Assembly: GCA_043826565.1 (NCBI GenBank)
Contig: JBDRPX010000035.1
Location: 31,299-95,298 of the forward strand
Reading direction: 5' to 3'
DNA from: Candidatus Omnitrophota bacterium
Lineage (GTDB): Bacteria; Omnitrophota; Gorgyraeia; B26-G9
DNA: 64,000 nt
Position 1 is the stretch's first letter, and each line of letters opens with the position of its first letter. The position numbers and the translations under genes are program-made. Of this stretch, positions 1-40,059 are shown piece after piece. The notes beneath the pieces are model-generated. The model made no database searches, was not told where the DNA came from, and saw nothing but the letters and a program-made list of their open reading frames with translations.

Positions 1-747
1 TTCCGCGTCTAAAAGAACCATGCCGCCGTTAGCTTCTAATGTTCCTAGGTTCTTTATCGCATCGGTTATCGGATTGCCATTTCGATCTAATATCGTCGAA
101 GCCACTTCTTTATCAATCGCTATAGAGATCATCCCGCCACTGGCAATATCTAATGTTACCGCGTCGCCGCAGGCTAAAGCGATTGTCCCCATCGGAGCAA
201 TGATCGTACCTTTGTTCTCTATACCACCGGCGATCAATACACCAAATCCGCCTTCACGAATATTAATTGTGCCTTCATTAAGCAAAAGCATATCCGCTAA
301 CTGGTCCGGATTTTTCTCAAATACATAATTACCGCTTAAGAAATTACTATTGGTAATATCTCTGGTTGAAGCAATTAATGATCCGGCATCAACAACCGCG
401 TTCGGACCAAAATATAATCCCGCTTCATTTATCAGGATCAGCCGGCCGTTACAGGTTAAATTACCAAGTAATAAACTTGGATTAGCGGATAGAACTCTAT
501 TTAATATTTCATCATTGAGATACGGCAGATTAATGATTACAGATTCTCCCGGTCCAATATTAAACGTAGCATAGTTAATAATTGATTTATCTGTGGCATT
601 AATTTGCAGTGTGGAAGAATTCGGATGTGAAAATTCAACGTCACCGTTGACCACCTCTGAATACTGTGGTAAAGCTAAAGCGCTGACATTAGCTGAATAT
701 ATAATAAAAATATTCAGCAAGATTATTGCTGTGAACTTTTTTAACAT
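1..747 (-). CDS. Partial (5'-end only; extends off the left edge) two-partner-secretion exoprotein / filamentous haemagglutinin N-terminal (haemagglutination-activity, TPS) domain protein
   Basis: Reverse-strand translation from the ATG at 745-747 reads MLKKFTAIILLNIFIIYSANVSALA (signal peptide). It is followed by ...NATDKSIINYATFNIGPGESVIINLP...NRVLSANPSLLLGNLTCNGRLILINEAGLYFGPNAVVDAGSLIASTRDITNSNF..., which is the canonical TPS-domain motif series (NxxG..LINxNGI.FG..A.V..G.LiAST). Confidence 0.75.
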   Translation of the reverse strand, partial: MLKKFTAIILLNIFIIYSANVSALALPQYSEVVNGDVEFSHPNSSTLQINATDKSIINYATFNIGPGESVIINLPYLNDEILNRVLSANPSLLLGNLTCNGRLILINEAGLYFGPNAVVDAGSLIASTRDITNSNFLSGNYVFEKNPDQLADMLLLNEGTINIREGGFGVLIAGGIENKGTIIAPMGTIALACGDAVTLDIASGGMISIAIDKEVASTILDRNGNPITDAIKNLGTLEANGGMVLLDAE

Positions 748-780
748 CTCTTTTACGCCCCCGTAAAACATTGGCTAATA

Positions 781-819
781 AAACAAAAAACCCATTCTTT
801 ATTAAATCTAGAATGGGTC
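781..819 (-). terminator. Rho-independent terminator-like hairpin (ACCCATTCT / AGAATGGGT stem) followed on the minus strand by UUUUUUGUUUU; lies 34 nt upstream of the TpsA-like start codon
   Basis: Perfect 9-bp inverted repeat at 790-798 and 811-819. Plus-strand A-run at 781-790 gives a U-run 3' of the stem on the minus strand. Confidence 0.6.
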
Positions 820-828
820 ACATTTTTT

Positions 829-922
829 CTTCGGCAACTGACTGCCTTTCCGCCACAATGCTTGGCGGATTAAGGCTCTTGAGTTTTGTGCCCCATCCTT
901 TCGGATAGTTTACCTTTTCGTG
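829..922 (-). ncRNA. Candidate GEMM-like (c-di-GMP-I-type) riboswitch aptamer in the leader of the TpsA-like gene
   Basis: Minus-strand RNA reads CACGAAAAGGUAAACUAUCCGAAAGGAUGGGGCACAAAACUCAAGAGCCUUAAUCCGCCAAGCAUUGUGGCGGAAAGGCAGUCAGUUGCCGAAG. The architecture parallels the Vibrio Vc2 aptamer: GG(Y)AAAC junction, a GAAA-tetraloop hairpin (AUCC-GAAA-GGAU), GGGCAC....AGCC, a second hairpin (CCGCCA-agcauug-UGGCGG), and ...UUGCCGAAG followed by the terminator at 781-819. Confidence 0.4.
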
Positions 923-1099
923 AACTAATATTATATTATAAAAGAACTAATTTCCTTATATATAAAGTATAACATATATATAATTATAATACTAATTATT
1001 GAGTAAAAAAAATAGGCCATAACATATCACTATAGAACAAGTTACGAAAGAAGCTTAAAAAAAGCAATCGTTAATTTAATAACTATACAAAATTGTTAA

Positions 1100-1144
1100 A
1101 TCTTTAACAACAAAACGCGGACAGGATTAATTCCCATCCGCGTT
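1100..1144 (-). terminator. Hairpin (AACGCGGA / TCCGCGTT) with a downstream U-rich tract just after the rpsA stop; probable rpsA terminator
   Basis: 8-bp inverted repeat at 1114-1121 and 1137-1144. The minus strand then reads UUUUGUUGUU. Confidence 0.5.
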
Positions 1145-1167
1145 AAATTTGTTATTTTTAGATCTTC

Positions 1168-2829
1168 CTACGATGTCTCTTTCATACTTAAACCGACTTT
1201 TCTCTGTTCATTATCGATTTTAACAATTTTTGCTTTTACTTTGTCATCAACCTTAAAAGTATCTTCCAGTTTCGCTGAAGCTTCAATATTTAATTCTGTA
1301 ATATGCACCAAACCTTCTAATTCTTTTTCAATTTCAACAAAGATCCCAAAAGTTGTAACTTTCGTAATTGTCCCTTCAATTTCTGTACCAATCGGGTAAC
1401 GCTCTACGATTTCCGGCCAAGGATCATCCGTAGCCTGTTTTAGCCCCAATGAGATCTTATGGTTTATCTCATCAACACTCAGGATAACAATTTCTACTTT
1501 TTGACCTTTTTTCAGAAACTCCGCAGGGTTATTCACTTTCTTGGTCCAGGAAATATCAGAAACGTGAATCAATCCATCTATACCTTCTTCGAGCTCAACA
1601 AATGCGCCGTAATCAGTAAGATTTCTCACTCTACCTTTTACTTTCGTACCCGTAGCATATTTACCGCTAATGCCCTGCCAAGGATCTGTTTCCGTTTGTT
1701 TAATCCCTAAAGCGATCTTCTGATTATTCGCTTCAAGATTTAAAACTACCGCCTCAACAATATCACCAATAGCCAGCATTTCCGAAGGATGGCTGATTCT
1801 TCTGACCCAGGAAAATTCTGAAATATGAATTAGCCCCTCAACCCCCTTTTCAAGCTCAACAAAAGCGCCGTAAGGAACAATGTTAACTACTTTCCCTTTT
1901 ATTTTTGAGCCGACAGGATATCTTTCTTCAATTCCCTGCCAAGGACTTTCGGTTTTCTGTTTCAAGCCAAGTGATATTTTTGTATTTTCTTTATTGATGT
2001 CCATGATCACAACATCAATCTTGTCTCCGATCGCCACCATTTCCGAAGGATGGCTGATTCTCCCCCAGCTCATATCCGTAATATGCAAAAGCCCATCAAC
2101 TCCGCCTAAATCTATGAAAACACCAAAATCAGCAATATTTTTAACTAATCCTGTGCGGACCTGACCTTTGGCTATTTCCTTGAGAAGTTTTGTTTTGCTT
2201 TCTTCTCTTTCCTTCATCAAAAGTTCTCTTCGGGAAAGGACAATATTTTTTCTCGGTTTATTTATCTTAACGATCATAAACTCATATTTATTTCCCAGAT
2301 ACTGATCTATGTTTTGCGCCCCGCGCAAAGAAGCCTGCGATGCCGGTAAAAATGCTTCCAATCCGACATCAACCATCAAACCGCCTTTAACCTTACGAGT
2401 TACTTTTCCTTCAATAATATCACCTTCATTAAAGTTATTGACAATTCTTTCCCATCCGAGAGTACGATCGGCTTTTCGCTTAGAAACGATAACCATTCCA
2501 TTTTCATCTTCTTTAGTCTCAAGCAGAACATTAATCTCTTCTTCCATATTGATATTATCAGGATCATCAAACTCATCAAGAGCGAGAATTCCTTCAGATT
2601 TATAACCAATATCCACCAAAACTTCTTTTTTGGTAATTCCGACAACTCTTCCGGTTATAATTTCGCCTTCAATAAGAGGTTTCACCCCCTGCTCATAGAA
2701 CTTTTCCAACTCCTTAGCAAATTTACTGTCTTTTCGGGGGTCTAATTCCTCGAATAATTCTGTTTTTTTCTTTTTTCGTGACATTTCATCTACTACCTCC
2801 TTTTCTAAAATAAGCCCCGCTATTTGCAT
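1168..2829 (-). CDS. rpsA: 30S ribosomal protein S1
   Basis: 553 aa with repeated S1 RNA-binding domains (e.g. GxV..I...GaFV.l..gveGLlHiSe). Typical length and acidic N-terminal region. Confidence 0.93.
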   Translation of the reverse strand: MQIAGLILEKEVVDEMSRKKKKTELFEELDPRKDSKFAKELEKFYEQGVKPLIEGEIITGRVVGITKKEVLVDIGYKSEGILALDEFDDPDNINMEEEINVLLETKEDENGMVIVSKRKADRTLGWERIVNNFNEGDIIEGKVTRKVKGGLMVDVGLEAFLPASQASLRGAQNIDQYLGNKYEFMIVKINKPRKNIVLSRRELLMKEREESKTKLLKEIAKGQVRTGLVKNIADFGVFIDLGGVDGLLHITDMSWGRISHPSEMVAIGDKIDVVIMDINKENTKISLGLKQKTESPWQGIEERYPVGSKIKGKVVNIVPYGAFVELEKGVEGLIHISEFSWVRRISHPSEMLAIGDIVEAVVLNLEANNQKIALGIKQTETDPWQGISGKYATGTKVKGRVRNLTDYGAFVELEEGIDGLIHVSDISWTKKVNNPAEFLKKGQKVEIVILSVDEINHKISLGLKQATDDPWPEIVERYPIGTEIEGTITKVTTFGIFVEIEKELEGLVHITELNIEASAKLEDTFKVDDKVKAKIVKIDNEQRKVGLSMKETS

Positions 2830-18026: not shown

Positions 18027-19691
18027 TTACCTTAACATCGCCTGTATTTCAAAACGCATAACTGTAGACTCACCGATCCGATCACGAAAGGTTTTAATCA
18101 ACTCTACATTTTTAAAATCATCAGCAAAATCAGAATTGTTTTTTAAATTGTTTATTAAATTATTGATAGAAAAGAGCATTTGGTCGCTATCCGCCGCAAA
18201 AGCAACTCCGTTAAGATTTAAAAACTGGCGTATTTCCTTTTTACGAAATGCCGTATCCATCAACCTGGTAAACTCATCTTCGTATCTCTTATCCGCGACA
18301 TCCATATTAGTAGTAAAAAGTCCGGTCAACCAGATATCTTTAGGTAAGACACTGCTGATTTCCTGTAATTTCTGAGCCCAGCTTATCCGGCGCTTAAGCA
18401 GGCCCCGAATGCCGTTCATTTGGTTGTCGAGTGTCGCTCTGGCTGTTTTTAAAGCATCTATTTCATCCATAACTAATGTTAAATCACCGTATTTCTGCTG
18501 CAGCCTGGCTTTATTTGCTTCTTTGATTTTAAGCTGCGTAAGCACCATTATCCAAATACCCACCAGCACAAAAGCTACGGCTCCGGATATGTAAATGTAT
18601 TTTTTGTATTGCCCAAAAAGTTCTACCAGCTTGTTTCTATTAACCTTAGCTTTTGTTGTGGAAAGATTAATATCAAAAGCACGGTGACAAGCAAGCCCCG
18701 CGCAAAGAGCCAACATCTTGGAATTATGCTCCAGATCCGTCTTTTTAAAAACCGCTGGATCGTAAGCTACATTAGCCATCGGATTCCATATTTTGACATT
18801 TAAACCAAGAACATTATGCAGGTATTTATCCACATTCTTAAACATGGTAATTCTACCGCTCAAATAAATCTCTTCAACATTATCTCTGCCCTGACTTTCG
18901 TAAAACTCTATTGTTCTTCTGATCTGGTTTGATAATGCGTTCAATATAAATAGACACAACTCATAAAGATCGTCACTTCCCAACACTCCCTTAAGAGAAC
19001 TAATATTGTTAAAATCTAATTCCATCTCTTTGGGTAAGGCATCTACCAAATTACTCCAGGCGACAAAACCATCTTTGGTAAGGCCGACAATTCTACCTCT
19101 GATAATGTCAACATTAGTAACCTCCATACCCACATTTATAATCGCAATGGTTTTATCCGGAGAAACCTGAGGACCGTTGATATAAAAACAATTCAATAAA
19201 CTGAATGTATCAACCTCTATAAATCCGCACTCATAACCGGCAGAAGTTATCAGACTCGCATAATTCTCAATTAAATCTTTTTTTGCCGCAACCAGGATTA
19301 CCCGGGTTTTTGTTTCCGCGATACTTTTATCTAAAACAGAATAATAATCAAAAACAATATCTTCCATTTTATAATGGACCTGCCGTTCAACCTCAAACTT
19401 CAATGCTTTACGAATTTCCGCATCACCCATTTGCGGCCAATGAATATCACGCACCACGACAGATTCACCGGACACCGAAATATTCACCTTAAATTTTTTT
19501 TTCTTTAACGGAAGTTTTTGGATTACATCTTTAATAGCATTTATAATTCCCTGTCTTCCTTCCCGAAAATTAACCTCGACCATTTCTAATCCAAGTAATT
19601 TATTTTCTTTTTCATTAGACGCAATATAGATAGCCTTAACCAGGCCATCGCCGATCTCCAATCCGACTGACTCTTTGTATTTACTGAACAT
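18027..19691 (-). CDS. pilMN: PilM (actin-like ATPase fold) fused to PilN (TM + coiled-coil periplasmic domain)
   Basis: 554 aa. An N-terminal ~350-aa PilM/FtsA-like region is followed by a TM helix (YISGAVAFVLVGIWIMVLT) and a ~180-aa PilN-like C-terminus. Confidence 0.65.
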   Translation of the reverse strand: MFSKYKESVGLEIGDGLVKAIYIASNEKENKLLGLEMVEVNFREGRQGIINAIKDVIQKLPLKKKKFKVNISVSGESVVVRDIHWPQMGDAEIRKALKFEVERQVHYKMEDIVFDYYSVLDKSIAETKTRVILVAAKKDLIENYASLITSAGYECGFIEVDTFSLLNCFYINGPQVSPDKTIAIINVGMEVTNVDIIRGRIVGLTKDGFVAWSNLVDALPKEMELDFNNISSLKGVLGSDDLYELCLFILNALSNQIRRTIEFYESQGRDNVEEIYLSGRITMFKNVDKYLHNVLGLNVKIWNPMANVAYDPAVFKKTDLEHNSKMLALCAGLACHRAFDINLSTTKAKVNRNKLVELFGQYKKYIYISGAVAFVLVGIWIMVLTQLKIKEANKARLQQKYGDLTLVMDEIDALKTARATLDNQMNGIRGLLKRRISWAQKLQEISSVLPKDIWLTGLFTTNMDVADKRYEDEFTRLMDTAFRKKEIRQFLNLNGVAFAADSDQMLFSINNLINNLKNNSDFADDFKNVELIKTFRDRIGESTVMRFEIQAMLR

Positions 19692-20976
19692 GAAACTCCT
19701 CCGGCTCCGGATAACAAACCCTGTTTCTTCCTTCGTGTTTGGCTTTATAAAGCATTTCGTCAGCTTTTTGAATCAACTGATCCATACCCATGGCTTTATC
19801 TTCCGGGAATTTACGCACGACAACACCGACACTAATCGTAAGCTTAATATGTTTATCACCCTGCATTATAAAATCTTCTTTTTCCACGCTCAGACGTAGA
19901 CGTTCGGCAATAGAGAATTGGTCCCCTTCTTTTTCCGCGAGGCCGGGAAGCACAACAACAAATTCTTCGCCGCCATAACGAGCACAAATATCTGTCATAC
20001 GAATACTCTGACTTAAAATTTGCGCGATTTTTTTCAGAACCATATCTCCGTCCTGATGTCCGTAAGTATCATTAATATTCTTAAAATAATCAATATCAAT
20101 CATCAGCAGGCTCATCGGCAATAACTGACGATTACAAAATTCCAACTCTTCATTTATACGTTTTTGTAAAAATGTACGGTTATAAAGCTGAGTTAACCTA
20201 TCCACAGAAGCAAGCCCGCGATGAATCGCGCTTCCTAAAGCAATCGCTCCTTCAGAAACAAGTAGTAGAAAAAATTCTTCTTCATTTTTAATTCTCATGG
20301 CCGCGCTCTCACCGCAAAAAACTACGATAATACCCCAAACTTCATCTTCAAGCACAAGCGGTATCAAAGCAAGAGCGGAAAGCCGGGCCAGATAAGCCGG
20401 CCGTTCTCCTTTTAGAAAATACGATGTCGCCGCGTCATTTCCAAAAGCATCGCCCCGGTCGGTAAAAATTTTTTTCGTTAACATTACCTTCTTGAGCAAT
20501 TCATCAGACTGCTTATATCGCAGAGCCTTTAACATACTGCGGTCAAAATTACAACCCGTCACATAGTCAAATTCATCAGTTCCCGGATCCTGGCAAAGTA
20601 AAAAACATTGGCTATCTCCCGACATATCGGCAGTGATTTTGGAAAACATATTCACGATCAATCTCAATAACTGATCCTTATTTATTGCGGAAGCAAGATC
20701 CTTCCCGAAATTTCTTAACTGAGCAAATTGCTCACGCTGGCGTTTTTCTTTTCTTCTTATTTCCTGAATAATTTCTTCTTTTTCATTTTGAAAAGACGCG
20801 ACAACTGCTTTTAATTCTTCTTCTACTTTAGAAGCATTGATTTTTAAATAAATTGCCGCGGCTAAAAAAGGCCCGCTAACCAGCAGTAAGGCCCCGCCCA
20901 TTAATGGTTTTATAAATAAAAATGCGATTATGAAAATTATGCCTACTGCCAATAATACAATTAAAAATTTCTGCAT
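19681..20976 (-). CDS. Membrane-anchored GGDEF diguanylate cyclase with a GAF-like sensory region
   Basis: GGEEF active-site motif (ARYGGEEFVVVLPG) with ...IDIDYFKNINDTYGHQDGD...; N-terminal TM helices. Confidence 0.85.
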   Translation of the reverse strand: MQKFLIVLLAVGIIFIIAFLFIKPLMGGALLLVSGPFLAAAIYLKINASKVEEELKAVVASFQNEKEEIIQEIRRKEKRQREQFAQLRNFGKDLASAINKDQLLRLIVNMFSKITADMSGDSQCFLLCQDPGTDEFDYVTGCNFDRSMLKALRYKQSDELLKKVMLTKKIFTDRGDAFGNDAATSYFLKGERPAYLARLSALALIPLVLEDEVWGIIVVFCGESAAMRIKNEEEFFLLLVSEGAIALGSAIHRGLASVDRLTQLYNRTFLQKRINEELEFCNRQLLPMSLLMIDIDYFKNINDTYGHQDGDMVLKKIAQILSQSIRMTDICARYGGEEFVVVLPGLAEKEGDQFSIAERLRLSVEKEDFIMQGDKHIKLTISVGVVVRKFPEDKAMGMDQLIQKADEMLYKAKHEGRNRVCYPEPEEFHVQ

Positions 20977-34354: not shown

Positions 34355-34819
34355 CTAACGAAAAATAACCGCGGTTTCCATAGCACAGGGCGAATCAATC
34401 AGGCCGTTTAAATTAGTATCTTCTCCGCTGTCTAAAACCCCGTTTAAATTAGCATCTTCTCCGATCATTCTGTTTCCCTGCCGCCAGCAAACAACAATCC
34501 GGAATTTTAAAAGAAAAGAAGGTTCCGTAAGATCTACAGTGATTGTTCCAAGATTAGGCACCCCTTTATTGGTCAGTTCATTTAAGGTGAATTGCGTATT
34601 ATGATAGTTTGGCGAGATATCGTCAAAGGGGACATTTTTTATCTCATCTCTTATCCCTTCAAGAGAATTCATAACCGGAGTAATATTGTCATTAAGTTCA
34701 TTAAGCTGTAGTAAATAACTTGTCGCCTGAAAAGATGAACCGATCGCTACAGACATTATGCCTACTGAAACAAGAATCTCTACTAGAGAAATTCCTTTGT
34801 TATTTTTCAATAACCTCAT
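34355..34819 (-). CDS. Minor pilin / pseudopilin, PilV/GspI-like (module 1)
   Basis: KG|ISLVEILVSVGIMSVAIG; 154 aa. SD GAGGGG immediately follows the leader terminator. Confidence 0.62.
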   Translation of the reverse strand: MRLLKNNKGISLVEILVSVGIMSVAIGSSFQATSYLLQLNELNDNITPVMNSLEGIRDEIKNVPFDDISPNYHNTQFTLNELTNKGVPNLGTITVDLTEPSFLLKFRIVVCWRQGNRMIGEDANLNGVLDSGEDTNLNGLIDSPCAMETAVIFR

Positions 34820-34830
34820 TATTTTACCCC

Positions 34831-34878
34831 TCTAAAAAATAAAATCCGACCTACCGTCCTTTTCCTTCGGTAGCTCGG
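34831..34878 (-). terminator. Intrinsic terminator / riboswitch expression platform 12 nt upstream of the first minor-pilin gene
   Basis: Minus-strand CCGAGCUACCG-(loop)-CGGUAGGUCGG stem (plus 34846-34878), followed by AUUUUAUUUUUU. Confidence 0.65.
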
Positions 34879-34900
34879 CTATCATAGGTTTTTCCTTTTT

Positions 34901-35050
34901 CTTCGGTAACCCGGCTGTCTGAAAAGGTATTACCTTTAGACCCGTGGCTTTGCTCCGGACTGACCAATGTCCAGAATCCCTAGCGCAAATCTCAACCGCT
35001 ATTATGGGATGTCCCCGCCTTTCGACGGGTTTGCCATTATCGGTAAAGGA
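34901..35050 (-). ncRNA. Candidate c-di-GMP-I (GEMM) riboswitch aptamer with an inserted extra hairpin
   Basis: Minus-strand RNA contains GGCAAACC, a CCGUC-GAAA-GGCGG tetraloop hairpin, GGGGAC, an inserted hairpin (AUCCC..UAGCG..CGCUA..GGGAU), GGAGCAAAGCCACGGGUCUAAAGG and CAGCCGGGUUACCGAAG. The last three are near-matches to conserved GEMM-I blocks (GGGACGCAAAGCC, GGGUUACCG). Confidence 0.5.
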
Positions 35051-36607: not shown

Positions 36608-38332
36608 TTATTCTGAAGAGGTCACCCGTAAAACTTCTTCTAATGTAGTTTTCCCTTCCAAAAAATTATGTATCCCGGCCCCACGTAAAGTAACCATGCC
36701 CACTTCTTTTTTAGCATAGCGTTTAATCTCATCGCTGGAACATCGTTTCATGATCATCTCCCGGATATCATCATTAAGTAATAAAATTTCAATCATCGCA
36801 AAACGCCCGCGATATCCTCCGGTGCATTTATTGCATCCTTTCCCTTTATACACAGTTAATTCTTCGGATTTTTTATCAATCTCCATCCGATCCAGCACTG
36901 ACTGAGGTACCTTATACGCCTCTTTACAATGAGAACAAACTTTACGGGCAAGCCTTTGCGCAACTACAGCCACAACACTCGAAGCAATTAAAAACGGTTC
37001 AATACCCATATCAATAAGTCTGGTTACCGCTCCCGGCGCGTCATTAGTATGGAGAGTACTTAAAAGCATTGCTCCGGTTAATGCCGCTTTAATCGCGATA
37101 TCACCTGTTTCAAAGTCTCTGATTTCTCCCACCATTAGAACATCCGGATTCTGCCTTAAAATCGATCTTAGCCCGGAGGAAAAAGTAAGTCCGATATCCG
37201 GTTTAACCTGTACCTGGGTAATTCCTTCAACCTGATATTCAACCGGATCTTCGACGGTAATAATATTTTTTTCCGGAGTATTAAGTTTATTTAAAACAGA
37301 ATACAAAGTCGTTGATTTCCCGCTTCCGGTAGGCCCGGTAACCAGGATCATGCCATACGGCCGGGTAATCGCGTAGTTAAAATCTTCCAGTGCTTTTGGC
37401 AGGAATCCTAAGGCTTCCAATCCAATGCTTAAATTGGATTTATCCAAAGCCCGCATAACAACTTTTTCCCCAAAACTGATCGGCAGGACAGAAACACGAA
37501 AATCAACTTCTTTTTGCGCGAATCTGACTTTAAACCTGCCGTCCTGAGGAATATGCCGCTGCGTAATATCCAGATTTGACATTATTTTTAAGCGTGCGGC
37601 AATAGCGTTCTGTATTTTTTTCGGCAAAATCGCGGCTTCGTGCAATGCTCCGTCAATTCTATATCTAACTCTAATATTATGTTCATACGGTTCAATATGT
37701 ATATCCGAAGCTTCTTTGATCAGGGATTCGGCGATTAAAGCATCGATCATCTTAACAATCGGAGCTTCTTCACTGGAACGGATTACATCACCGATATCAA
37801 CCTGGTCGTGCTGCTGAACCACTTCGATATCGTCTTCAGTCATATTCTTAACTAAATCATCAATTGACTGATTAAGCTTTTTCTGCGCCTCCACCCCTCC
37901 CGGATGATATAATCTATCTATGGTCGAAGTAACCGCACTCACGGTACAGACAGCCGGAGCCACATCATAGCCGGTAAGCGCTTTTATATCATCTATGGCT
38001 AATACATTTGATGGGTCACTCATGGCAATGCTCAGCATACTTCCAATCCTGGAGATAGCTAAGAGCTGGTAATGACGGGCTACATGTTCCGGGATTATCT
38101 TAACCGCTTTTTCCGCAGCATTAAACTTAGTAAGGTCAATTAGCGGCACATGCAGATATTTACAAAAACAAATCGCGATATTTTCTTCGGTTGTGAATTT
38201 ATTTTCTACTAATATAGTCGCTAACTGTCCGCCTTTCTTTTGCTGAATATTCAAGGCTTCATTGAGTGTTTTTTCGTCAATAAGATTGTGCTCTATTAGT
38301 AGTTCATTAAGTCTTTTTTTTACTCTACGCAT
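36608..38332 (-). CDS. pilB: Type IV pilus assembly ATPase PilB/GspE with an N-terminal MshEN (GspE-N) domain and tetracysteine motif
   Basis: N-terminal RLNELLIEHNLIDEKTLNEALNIQ (MshEN), Walker A GPTGSGKSTT, and CSHC...CNKC zinc site; 574 aa. Confidence 0.9.
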   Translation of the reverse strand: MRRVKKRLNELLIEHNLIDEKTLNEALNIQQKKGGQLATILVENKFTTEENIAICFCKYLHVPLIDLTKFNAAEKAVKIIPEHVARHYQLLAISRIGSMLSIAMSDPSNVLAIDDIKALTGYDVAPAVCTVSAVTSTIDRLYHPGGVEAQKKLNQSIDDLVKNMTEDDIEVVQQHDQVDIGDVIRSSEEAPIVKMIDALIAESLIKEASDIHIEPYEHNIRVRYRIDGALHEAAILPKKIQNAIAARLKIMSNLDITQRHIPQDGRFKVRFAQKEVDFRVSVLPISFGEKVVMRALDKSNLSIGLEALGFLPKALEDFNYAITRPYGMILVTGPTGSGKSTTLYSVLNKLNTPEKNIITVEDPVEYQVEGITQVQVKPDIGLTFSSGLRSILRQNPDVLMVGEIRDFETGDIAIKAALTGAMLLSTLHTNDAPGAVTRLIDMGIEPFLIASSVVAVVAQRLARKVCSHCKEAYKVPQSVLDRMEIDKKSEELTVYKGKGCNKCTGGYRGRFAMIEILLLNDDIREMIMKRCSSDEIKRYAKKEVGMVTLRGAGIHNFLEGKTTLEEVLRVTSSE

Positions 38333-38343
38333 TCATTATTCCT

Positions 38344-40059
38344 TTAATCATCCGCAGTTAAACGGGTGATCTCTTCTAAACTTGTAAGCCCTTTCAGTGC
38401 TTTAATAACACCGTTTTCCCGTAAAGTGGTCATTCCTTCCTCTCGCGCTTTTTTCTTGATGATCCCTTCCTGGGCTTTTTGCATAACCAAGTCCCGGATA
38501 TCCGGAGTAAAAATCAAAACCTCACATAAACCGAGTCTTCCCCGATAACCGGTATTACTACATTTAGCACATCCTTTAGGTTTGAATAACTCTTTAGCAT
38601 CCTCGTTAATAAAAAATCTTTTTCTTATCTCCGGGGTTATCTCATATGCTTCTTTACAATTATCACAAAGTTTTCGGATCAATCTCTGGGCACATACCAA
38701 TAAGCACGAGGAAGTGATCAGAAACGGTTCAATACCCATATTTACCATTCTGGTTACCGCTCCGGAAGCTTCCGTCGTATGTAATGTGCTTAAAACTAAA
38801 TGCCCGGTAAGAGCAGCTTTAATCGCGATATCCAGAGTTTCTGTATCACGAATTTCACCGACCATAATGATATCCGGGTCCTGACGTAAAAATGATCGTA
38901 AAGCACCGCTAAAAGTAAGCCCGATCTCCGGGTTAACACTAACCTGATTAATTCCCGGCAATTGGTATTCAACCGGATCCTCTGCGGTAACCAGATTTAG
39001 TTCCGGATTATCCACATATTTTAAAACCGAATACAAAGTAGTCGATTTTCCGCTTCCGGTCGGCCCGACAACAAGGATCATTCCATGCGGTTCCTGCGCA
39101 AGGGTCTTAACTCTTTGTATTGTTTCAACCTCAAAACCTAAAGCGTCCAAATCAAGAATTACCGTAGTCTTATCTAATATACGCAAAGCAATTTTCTCTC
39201 CGTGGGTGCACGGCATAATCGAAACACGAAAATCAATTTCCCGGTCACCGATTTTAATTTTAAAACGGCCGTCTTGCGGTAAACGATGTTCCGCTATATT
39301 TAAAGTGGACATGACTTTAATCCGGGAAATAATCGCGTCCTGCATATGTACCGGCGGTGCCGGAAATTCCTGTAGAATTCCATCGAGGCGATAACGTATC
39401 CGCAGGCGTTTTTCCTGCGGTTCAATTAAAACATCGCTCGCTTTGTGTTTAATCGCTTCCGCAAGAAGCATATTCGTAACTTTTACAACCGGAGTATCTT
39501 CAACTTGAGCAAGAAGTTGTTTTTCACTAAGCTGCCTATCTTCAGAAGCACCTTCATCCTGAAATATTTGGATATCCATGTCCTTTACATCATCAATAAT
39601 TGCTCTCATCTGATCATCCGATGACCCGCTATAATGTTTTTCAATTGCTTCCTTAAGCTCCTTTTCAGCCGCAATAACAACTTTCAGCTGATAATTGGTA
39701 AGCACTTTAAGTTCATCAATAGCCAGGACATTAAGCGGGTCGACCATGGCGACTGTTAAAACTTTTCCAATTTTAGAAATCGCAATCGCCAGATATTTTT
39801 CCGCCAGCTGCCGGGGAATGATCTGAACCACATCCTGATTTATTTTGAACTTAGCAAGGTTGATCGGGGGGATATTCAAACTTTGACTTAATACAATTAC
39901 CAAGTCACGCTGACTAATATAACCCATTGTCGTCAGGACTTCACTTAAACGCCGTCCCGTTTCTTTTTGCAAAGCAATAGCTTCCTCAAGCTGCTCCTTT
40001 GTTAAGAAATTAGAGCGGGTTAAAACCTCCAGCATTTTGTCTTTAATACCTTGAACCAT
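38344..40059 (-). CDS. Second PilB/GspE-family ATPase paralog with an N-terminal MshEN domain
   Basis: KMLEVLTRSNFLTKEQLEEAIALQ, GPTGSGKSTT, and CDNC...CAKC; 571 aa. Confidence 0.88.
   Translation of the reverse strand: MVQGIKDKMLEVLTRSNFLTKEQLEEAIALQKETGRRLSEVLTTMGYISQRDLVIVLSQSLNIPPINLAKFKINQDVVQIIPRQLAEKYLAIAISKIGKVLTVAMVDPLNVLAIDELKVLTNYQLKVVIAAEKELKEAIEKHYSGSSDDQMRAIIDDVKDMDIQIFQDEGASEDRQLSEKQLLAQVEDTPVVKVTNMLLAEAIKHKASDVLIEPQEKRLRIRYRLDGILQEFPAPPVHMQDAIISRIKVMSTLNIAEHRLPQDGRFKIKIGDREIDFRVSIMPCTHGEKIALRILDKTTVILDLDALGFEVETIQRVKTLAQEPHGMILVVGPTGSGKSTTLYSVLKYVDNPELNLVTAEDPVEYQLPGINQVSVNPEIGLTFSGALRSFLRQDPDIIMVGEIRDTETLDIAIKAALTGHLVLSTLHTTEASGAVTRMVNMGIEPFLITSSCLLVCAQRLIRKLCDNCKEAYEITPEIRKRFFINEDAKELFKPKGCAKCSNTGYRGRLGLCEVLIFTPDIRDLVMQKAQEGIIKKKAREEGMTTLRENGVIKALKGLTSLEEITRLTADD

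Follow-up and report, generated by a model that had tools for sequence, protein, structure and literature searches.

The leader that precedes a TpsA-like exoprotein gene near the start of the analysed DNA is a standard c-di-GMP-I (GEMM-I) riboswitch. It is real, it is conserved in relatives, and it is neither a new RNA class nor a cGAMP-type switch. The analysis covered the whole stretch of 64,000 nucleotides, referred to here as the window. That this leader (the tpsA leader) is a c-di-GMP-I riboswitch with terminator control is almost certain. The best overall explanation, which we consider very probable, is a canonical GEMM-I leader of a TpsA-like gene, equipped with a terminator and operating under an OFF model; the OFF direction taken by itself is graded separately below.

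Along the minus strand of window positions 1-1500, an rpsA-like gene comes to its end and is followed by its terminator, an AT-rich spacer, the leader, a hairpin and the TPS open reading frame (Table 1). The leader after the rpsA terminator reads UUCACGAAAAGGUAAACUAUCCGAAAGGAUGGGGCACAAAACUCAAGAGCCUUAAUCCGCCAAGCAUUGUGGCGGAAAGGCAGUCAGUUGCCGAAGAAAAAAUGUG on the minus strand, and the minus-strand sequence quoted in the original prediction was found as written and where it had been placed. As predicted, the leader lies on the strand of the gene, with the rpsA terminator on one side and a TPS-domain gene on the other. Because the rpsA terminator lies at 1144-1114, the tpsA leader belongs to a separate transcription unit. 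In the TpsA-like reading frame, the TPS secretion domain PF05860 was matched with E values of 4e-23 to 1e-24 (residues 28-284). The part of this frame within the window comprises the first 249 residues and includes the TPS domain, and the N-terminus of the protein, as read from its sequence, is hydrophobic, in line with a signal peptide ahead of the TPS domain. A public contig (L003, from Logan SRR26275510, the one public run in which it was detected) is identical to the window over the leader, and there the gene extends to at least 1701 amino acids, with the TPS domain and GLUG repeats (PF07581 Glug, E 9e-35).

Upstream of the aptamer, 9 related leaders have the extended -10 element TGnTATACT at the corresponding position, in most cases preceded by a TTGACA at a distance of 17-18 nt. 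The window contains only two occurrences of this element, a number that does not by itself exceed chance expectation, and its support comes from this positional conservation. Transcription of the tpsA leader would thus be expected to start near 959. A second conserved element, GTTCTTTT, is located about 20 nt upstream of P1 and outside the Rfam aptamer model. In the minimum free energy (MFE) fold of the full leader, this element is paired with GUAAAAGA, immediately upstream of the AUG, a pairing that is not convincingly conserved. The window also encodes a GGDEF diguanylate cyclase, which indicates that c-di-GMP is made by this organism. The cyclase gene is part of a type IV pilus cluster that includes genes for MshEN-domain pilus ATPases (36608-40059).

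Table 1. Features of the tpsA leader, its surroundings and the second aptamer (window coordinates).
Feature	Position	Strand	Description
TpsA-like exoprotein gene, 5' part (regulated gene)	1..747	minus	ATG at 747-745; runs off the window
Intrinsic terminator	780..819	minus	stem 819-810 with 798-789, loop 809-799, U6GU4 790-780
Antiterminator 3' strand (proposed)	810..822	minus	UGUG-A-CCCAUUCU; overlaps terminator 5' arm
c-di-GMP-I (GEMM-I) aptamer	827..924	minus	RF01051 match, MFE folding, covariation
Aptamer P1	924-919 with 833-827	minus	G919-C833, C920-G832, C922-G829, U923-A828, U924-A827
C92 equivalent	834	minus	Watson-Crick pair with G-beta of c-di-GMP; placed by model alignment
Aptamer P3	885-882/839-836, 878-877/841-840, 876-874/846-844, 869-864/854-849	minus	paired segments of the aptamer
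A47 equivalent	887	minus	intercalates between the two guanines of the ligand; A in 12/12 related leaders
Antiterminator 5' strand (proposed)	887..899	minus	AGGAUGGG-G-CACA; P2 3' arm plus C44, A45, C46, A47
Aptamer junction pairs	G913-C888, U912-A889	minus	part of the aptamer
Aptamer P2	908-903 with 898-893	minus	GAAA loop 902-899
G20 equivalent	914	minus	contacts G-alpha of c-di-GMP; RF01051 model position 11; G retained
Conserved 5'-leader motif	940..947	minus	GTTCTTTT (GYTCTTTA in relatives); 9/12 related leaders
Probable promoter	966..974	minus	extended -10 TGTTATACT, weak -35; positional conservation in relatives
rpsA terminator	1114..1144	minus	13-bp stem, then T-run
rpsA-like ORF	stop at 1168	minus	six S1 domains
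GGDEF diguanylate cyclase gene	19681..20976	minus	PF00990, E 6e-47; GGEEF motif
Pilin-like gene downstream of second aptamer	34355-34819		N_methyl motif
Second GEMM-I aptamer	34902..35045	minus	RF01051, 44.9 bits over the full 87-position model; 28.2 bits with lineage model R1

Positions 830-924 of the minus strand matched RF01051 (c-di-GMP-I/GEMM-I) with 61.5 bits and an E value of 1.3e-9 for the 64-kb window. The gathering score of this family is 35, the match spans all 87 model positions (1-87), and the similarity greatly exceeds what chance would give. When the entire window was scanned with Rfam 15 at the gathering threshold, exactly two matches were returned, both to RF01051 and both on the minus strand. 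The original prediction had described the tpsA leader as GEMM-type, which this score bears out, and as divergent, which it contradicts, since the copy before the pilin-like gene reached 44.9 bits and the tpsA copy is the less divergent of the two. The proposal that the two leaders represent a new class of cis-regulatory RNA was rejected because both match the catalogued family RF01051. The shared CCGAAG that had been read as a sign of such a class consists of C92 and the 3' strand of P1 and falls within the Rfam consensus (UgCCgaa). For the c-di-GMP-II family (RF01786), the window gave no match at the gathering threshold, and positions 700-1200 gave none at E values up to 10. The c-di-GMP-I-GGC variant (RF03167, consensus GACGCGAA), which has a G at position 47, was also rejected, as the window has A887 and the best clan member is RF01051.

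MFE folding recovered P2 (CUAUCC-GAAA-GGAUGG) and the long P3 hairpin, with z scores of -3.4 to -4.2. P1 is short and lacks independent covariation support. Its strands CACG (922-919) and CGAAG (833-829) correspond to the annotation of P1 in the sister model RF03167, and it can be extended by U923-A828 and U924-A827. A different P1, formed between the upstream GUUCUUU motif and the GAAGAA tail, was dropped as mere pairing of pyrimidine and purine runs with inconsistent registers in the relatives. Vc2 numbers were placed on the RF01051 model by counting along the Vc2 sequence, and we take G20 to be the unpaired G directly 5' of the two-bp “GC...GC” helix and A47 to be the nucleotide directly after that helix. 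In Vc2, the ligand is contacted by G20, A47 and C92 (PMC4744006, PMC5888326), and an interhelical Watson-Crick pair, C44-G83, connects P2 to P3 and is universally conserved (PMC4744006). All five of these nucleotides are canonical in the window aptamer, C44 and G83 being represented by C890 and G842, which are present in the sequence at the matching model positions. The aptamer of the tpsA leader agrees with the RF01051 family and its structural prototype, Vc2 of Vibrio cholerae, in a full-length model match, a three-helix junction, a GAAA-capped P2, the G20/A47/C92 contacts, C44-G83 and the CACG/CGAAG P1. Like other RF01051 members, it is located in a 5'-UTR before a surface or environment gene. 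It differs from them in a variant P3 receptor, a longer distal P3 hairpin and a compensated U22-A45 pair in place of C22-G45. In the tetraloop-receptor region of P3, CCUUAA...AAGG is found instead of CCUAAG...UAUGG, with the 3' side one nucleotide shorter. This variant receptor, common only to the window and one related leader (L006), is a point against the main explanation; the GAAA loop of P2, which would dock there, is present. With G20, A47 and C92 in place, the aptamer is predicted to bind c-di-GMP.

A metagenome scan with a three-sequence TPS alignment yielded 80 loci, among which the ten closest TpsA relatives (L004-L013) show 49-60% identity. Rfam detected GEMM-I upstream, on the strand of the gene, in 9 of these 10 loci (L004-L012, 40-76 bits) and in none of L014-L023. 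A lineage model built from nine leaders (R1) also recovered L013, so that an aptamer is found upstream of 10/10 of the closest TpsA relatives. The same model detected no aptamer in the 70 more distant loci and no copies in the window beyond the two already known. In the species-genome collection, two TpsA relatives were found, and neither had a riboswitch match: L001, a Candidatus Omnitrophota MAG with 57% identity and only 363 nt of upstream sequence, and L002, which is distant. These two say little about conservation of the leader, and L001 gives a weak hint at the taxonomic placement.

Across 12 related leaders, 96.8% of the pair cells contain standard pairs, compared with 22-42% when the partners are slid. 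In addition, 10 of the 17 pairs have changed on both sides, a number reached in 0/500 column shuffles. The alignment was fitted to the model and is biased towards the structure; the conclusion on the fold is nevertheless safe, given the control with slid partners and the count of pairs changed on both sides. Compensatory changes, as expected of a structured RNA, are thus present in these leaders and speak for membership of the established GEMM-I family. Additional copies in front of related genes were found in the TpsA leaders of the relatives, but a third copy within the window was not. Taken with the positive covariance-model scan, which returned the known family RF01051, these results leave standing the part of the original prediction that concerns a genuine structured RNA, yet what survives is membership of a known family and not a new one. 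Several orthologous leaders carry changes at ligand-contact positions: A20 in L007 and L009, C20 in L013 and U92 in L011. One of the relatives, L006, was considered as a true “GGC” variant and rejected, given the marginal match (60 vs 59 bits) and the presence of A47.

The second aptamer precedes a pilin-like gene, as had been claimed, with the N_methyl motif in the gene and a score above the gathering score of the family. The statement that both leaders have the same layout holds for the family consensus and for the order of GEMM-I followed by a terminator, but their expression platforms are built differently. The pilin leader carries a two-hairpin insertion of about 57 nt between C44 and G45. 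Its terminator 5' arm and loop copy the 3' strand of the aptamer (21/24 identical), and this copy includes a second AAAGGA able to replace the 3' strand of P1. Unlike this platform, the tpsA terminator has a 5' arm that is complementary to the 3' arm of aptamer P2.

The terminator hairpin of the tpsA leader has the arms GACCCAUUCU and AGAAUGGGUU, which form 10 bp around an 11-nt loop. It folds at -12 to -13 kcal/mol, and 0/200 shuffles were as stable, in keeping with its earlier description as an excellent terminator. The distance to the ATG, previously given as 34 nt, was measured as 33 nt after the last U, so that the earlier figure was essentially right. A pattern scanner missed this terminator because its 11-nt loop exceeds the 8-nt limit. 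With the exception of L011, in which the aptamer is present and no terminator was detected, every related leader with enough downstream sequence has one to three terminators in the same place.

Folding of growing transcripts was used to search for an antiterminator. A duplex of 899-887 with 822-810 was identified at -16.6 kcal/mol, a value reached by none of 300 shuffled aptamers. Among genomic 15-mers, a fraction of 0.0105 pair equally well, or 0.0015 when GC-matched. The proposed antiterminator is the MFE structure while the transcript ends at 811-806, where the 5' arm of the terminator is out and the 3' arm is not. At this critical length it is about 1 kcal/mol better than the fold with P2 intact (ddG -1.0). 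In a transcript ending at 800, the 4-bp CACA/UGUG helix has a probability of about 0.3, compared with about 0.68 for P2. At full length, the MFE structure is the aptamer with the terminator (-46 vs -38 kcal/mol). The same complementarity between the P2 3' arm and a terminator 5' arm was observed in L004 (T2), L005 (T2), L006, L007, L009 (T2) and L010. In L009 both sides of the antiterminator are changed (GGGUAGGGC with GCCCUAUUU, ddG -10.2 kcal/mol). L008 has a different P2 sequence, and its terminator 5' arm matches the distal part of P3 instead. For L004 T1, L009 T1 and L010 T1 and T3, the pairing does not exceed that of the shuffled controls.

These structures suggest a mechanism in which the transcript would begin at the extended -10 promoter (974-966), near 959, and the leader would fold into the GEMM-I three-helix junction (924-827), with G20, A47 and C92 placed for c-di-GMP. 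Control would be exerted at transcription elongation, through the terminator at 819-780, which ends 33 nt short of the ATG. When c-di-GMP is low, a proportion of the nascent transcripts may adopt the antiterminator, which would allow read-through into the TpsA gene. At high c-di-GMP, the junction would be locked, the terminator would form and expression would be OFF. The four CACA/UGUG base pairs would use junction nucleotides that the ligand locks, and could therefore serve as a toehold in the free state only. Two considerations point in this direction. No part of the terminator overlaps the aptamer or P1, so that ligand binding hides neither of its arms and the bound state permits termination. 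Furthermore, the 12-bp antiterminator, the only competing structure found, requires an unfolded aptamer, so that the free RNA would antiterminate and the bound RNA would terminate. On this basis, transcriptional OFF control is the direction that we favour for the tpsA leader, with moderate confidence.

The closest characterized systems include a set of clostridial switches. In Cd1 (Cdi-1-3) and other functional class I riboswitches of Clostridioides difficile, c-di-GMP favours termination and switches expression OFF (PMC6366702). The tpsA leader resembles Cd1 (PMC6366702) in that an intrinsic terminator comes after a class I aptamer, and in its inferred OFF logic. The C. difficile switches differ in being experimentally validated, in belonging to a Firmicute and in preceding flagellar, protease and other genes, whereas the target of the tpsA leader is a TpsA-like exoprotein in an uncultured, probably Omnitrophota-related bacterium and its direction is deduced from pairing only. 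The V. cholerae class I riboswitches provide a contrast, since according to a review of c-di-GMP riboswitches neither of them acts by transcription termination, unlike the tpsA leader with its clear intrinsic terminator.

An adhesin-like gene shut off at high c-di-GMP would run counter to the usual pattern in which c-di-GMP promotes adhesion, and this expectation stands against the OFF direction. The same GEMM-I aptamer could instead act as an ON switch, with c-di-GMP causing read-through and inducing the adhesin-like gene. Such a direction would follow the general paradigm and the precedents of Vc1-gbpA (V. cholerae) and Bc2-cap (B. thuringiensis), which are ON switches and, like the tpsA leader, class I riboswitches before adhesin or colonisation-factor genes. 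The review also stresses that the direction has to be established case by case and allows no extrapolation between species. However, both arms of the terminator (819-810 and 798-789) lie outside 924-827, and ligand binding withdraws nothing required for termination. Formation of the one competing helix that was found depends on unfolding of P2 and the junction, and the same logic is seen in relatives. An ON switch operating through an overlap of P1 or P3 with the terminator was rejected, as there is no such overlap and no aptamer-compatible structure that would block the terminator. We therefore regard an ON switch as rather unlikely.

A second possibility is that the aptamer looks intact while the terminator acts as a constitutive attenuator, or that an extra factor is needed, as reported for Bc1. 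Bc1 of B. thuringiensis, whose long expression platform includes two terminators in tandem, did not respond to c-di-GMP. Its tandem terminators resemble those of L004, L005, L009 and L010, whereas the window leader has only one terminator and its platform is short. The marginal advantage of the antiterminator (-1.0 kcal/mol) and the clear full-length preference for aptamer plus terminator are also compatible with constitutive attenuation. Nevertheless, the aptamer is strongly conserved, with compensatory changes, in 10 orthologous leaders, and the ligand contacts of the window copy are all kept. The complementarity between the terminator 5' arm and the aptamer is itself conserved and covarying. 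Together, the conserved aptamer and the covarying complementarity argue for selection on a switching function, and we consider constitutive attenuation improbable.

The GGUAAAC sequence of the junction had been thought to recall the G20A change that retunes GEMM-I to cGAMP. G20 (914) is kept in the window RNA, and the base that has changed is C22, which is U at 912 and is compensated by a change of G45 to A (889). In the 12 related leaders, the 22-45 pair is UA in six, CG in five and UG in one. Judged from these sequences, GGUAAAC reads as a textbook compensatory change and not as a specificity switch. The overall fold and consensus are shared with GEMM-Ib riboswitches, which respond to 3'3'-cGAMP (for example Gs1761 of Geobacter) and have A20, unlike the window RNA; among the relatives, A20 is found only in L007 and L009. 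That the tpsA leader is itself a cGAMP-sensing riboswitch of the GEMM-Ib type is highly improbable, for although these two orthologous leaders carry A at position 20 and indicate that the lineage varies there, the window RNA has G20 (914) with canonical C92 and A47 in place of the defining A20, and the U of GGUAAAC is position 22, which is paired and covaries with A45 (889).

The GEMM-I class was described in 2007-2008, and for RNA biology the present assignment matters little, being a routine annotation at the level of Rfam. The association of GEMM-I with adhesion and surface genes is well established according to the review, and our search of a literature library returned nothing linking GEMM-I to TpsA or filamentous haemagglutinin genes, or riboswitches to Omnitrophota. 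Its modest value lies in the context: in an uncultured lineage about which little is known, it predicts direct c-di-GMP control of a giant exoprotein of the TpsA type and, separately, of a pilin operon. If the OFF direction is true, it would run contrary to the expectation that c-di-GMP promotes adhesion. The linkage between the riboswitch and TpsA is kept among close relatives, and the variation at specificity positions among the orthologous leaders constitutes a small natural experiment. Only tentatively would we go further and propose that the TpsA locus of this lineage always includes a GEMM-I leader, with inverted logic by which high c-di-GMP turns off the giant exoprotein, and that orthologues in sister species may answer to different cyclic dinucleotides, the window copy being the canonical c-di-GMP form.

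Some of the GEMM-I aptamers carry an insertion of about 50–60 nt between C44 and G45 (Vc2 numbering), which forms two additional hairpins and lies exactly at the ligand-binding junction. This insertion was observed in the pilin leader of the window and in the TpsA leaders of two metagenomic relatives, and it accounts for the reduced Rfam scores of two of these aptamers and for the detection of the third by the lineage covariance model only. The coordinates of all features are listed in the table below.

Features of the window and of the loci of TpsA relatives (L-numbers)
Feature	Locus	Position	Strand	Remark
Insertion-bearing GEMM-I aptamer	Window	34902-35045	-	Pilin leader; Rfam 44.9 bits
Insertion-bearing GEMM-I aptamer	L012	482-623		TpsA leader; Rfam 40.5 bits
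Insertion-bearing GEMM-I aptamer	L013	1090-1235		TpsA leader; lineage model only; C at position 20
Aptamer	L007	1211-1317		A at position 20, GEMM-Ib-like
Aptamer	L009	918-1017		A at position 20, GEMM-Ib-like
Aptamer	L011	1097-1192		U at position 92
Partial second GEMM-like 5' half, UUCCGAUAAAGGUAAACCCUGUUAGAAAUAACGGGGUUUAC	L005	1160-1215		Directly 5' of the aptamer
Pilin-leader expression platform	Window	34817-34910	-	Sequence comparison with own aptamer
Tandem terminators	L004	1140-1225
Tandem terminators	L005	1335-1410
Tandem terminators	L009	1035-1125
Tandem terminators	L010	1235-1400
Small ORF before TpsA gene	L004	~1150-1400
Small ORF before TpsA gene	L008	~1240-1430
Small ORF before TpsA gene	L009	~1130-1415
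GYTCTTTA motif	Window; L004-L011	940-947; equivalent sites	-	Kept in 9 of 12 leaders
Type IV pilus cluster	Window	15294-40059	-	Pfam

In the pilin leader, the terminator 5' arm and loop (AGCCGAGCUACCGAAGGAAAAGGA) match the 3' strand of the aptamer together with the P1 3' strand (AGCCGGGUUACCGAAGAAAAAGGA) at 21 of 24 positions. The expression platform, with a terminator that copies part of its own aptamer, is therefore constructed differently from that of the tpsA leader. Four of the relatives contain two or three tandem intrinsic terminators 3' of the aptamer, recalling the dual terminators of the Bc1 platform in B. thuringiensis. Additionally, in several relatives the TpsA gene is separated from the riboswitch terminators by a small ORF of about 80–100 aa (e.g. 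MKMEKLRTVTFLNREQIDFLDNLDKD...); this ORF returned no match in a Pfam search and is absent from the tpsA leader of the window. The partial aptamer half in L005 may be the leftover of a tandem or duplicated aptamer.

Upstream of the aptamer, the conserved GYTCTTTA motif is separated by about 20 nt each from the -10 element on its 5' side and from P1 on its 3' side. Predicted folding indicates that the window copy could pair with GUAAAAGA, immediately 5' of the AUG.

The large type IV pilus cluster encodes a secretin, PilM/PilO, several pilin-like proteins, two MshEN-domain ATPases and a PilC-like T2SSF protein, and it encloses a GGDEF cyclase and a sigma-54 two-component pair. Two ORFs of this region (907 and 941 aa) were without a Pfam match. 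Across positions 1–64000, nearly all long ORFs are found on the minus strand; GC content is about 39–42%, with a GC skew that stays negative throughout (-0.16 to -0.27).

Alignment of the related leaders also revealed that ligand-contact positions vary among the orthologous TpsA leaders. G20 and C92 are kept in the tpsA leader of the window and in the related leaders other than the four variants tabulated. Judged from their sequences, the two leaders with A20 are possible candidates for cGAMP sensors.
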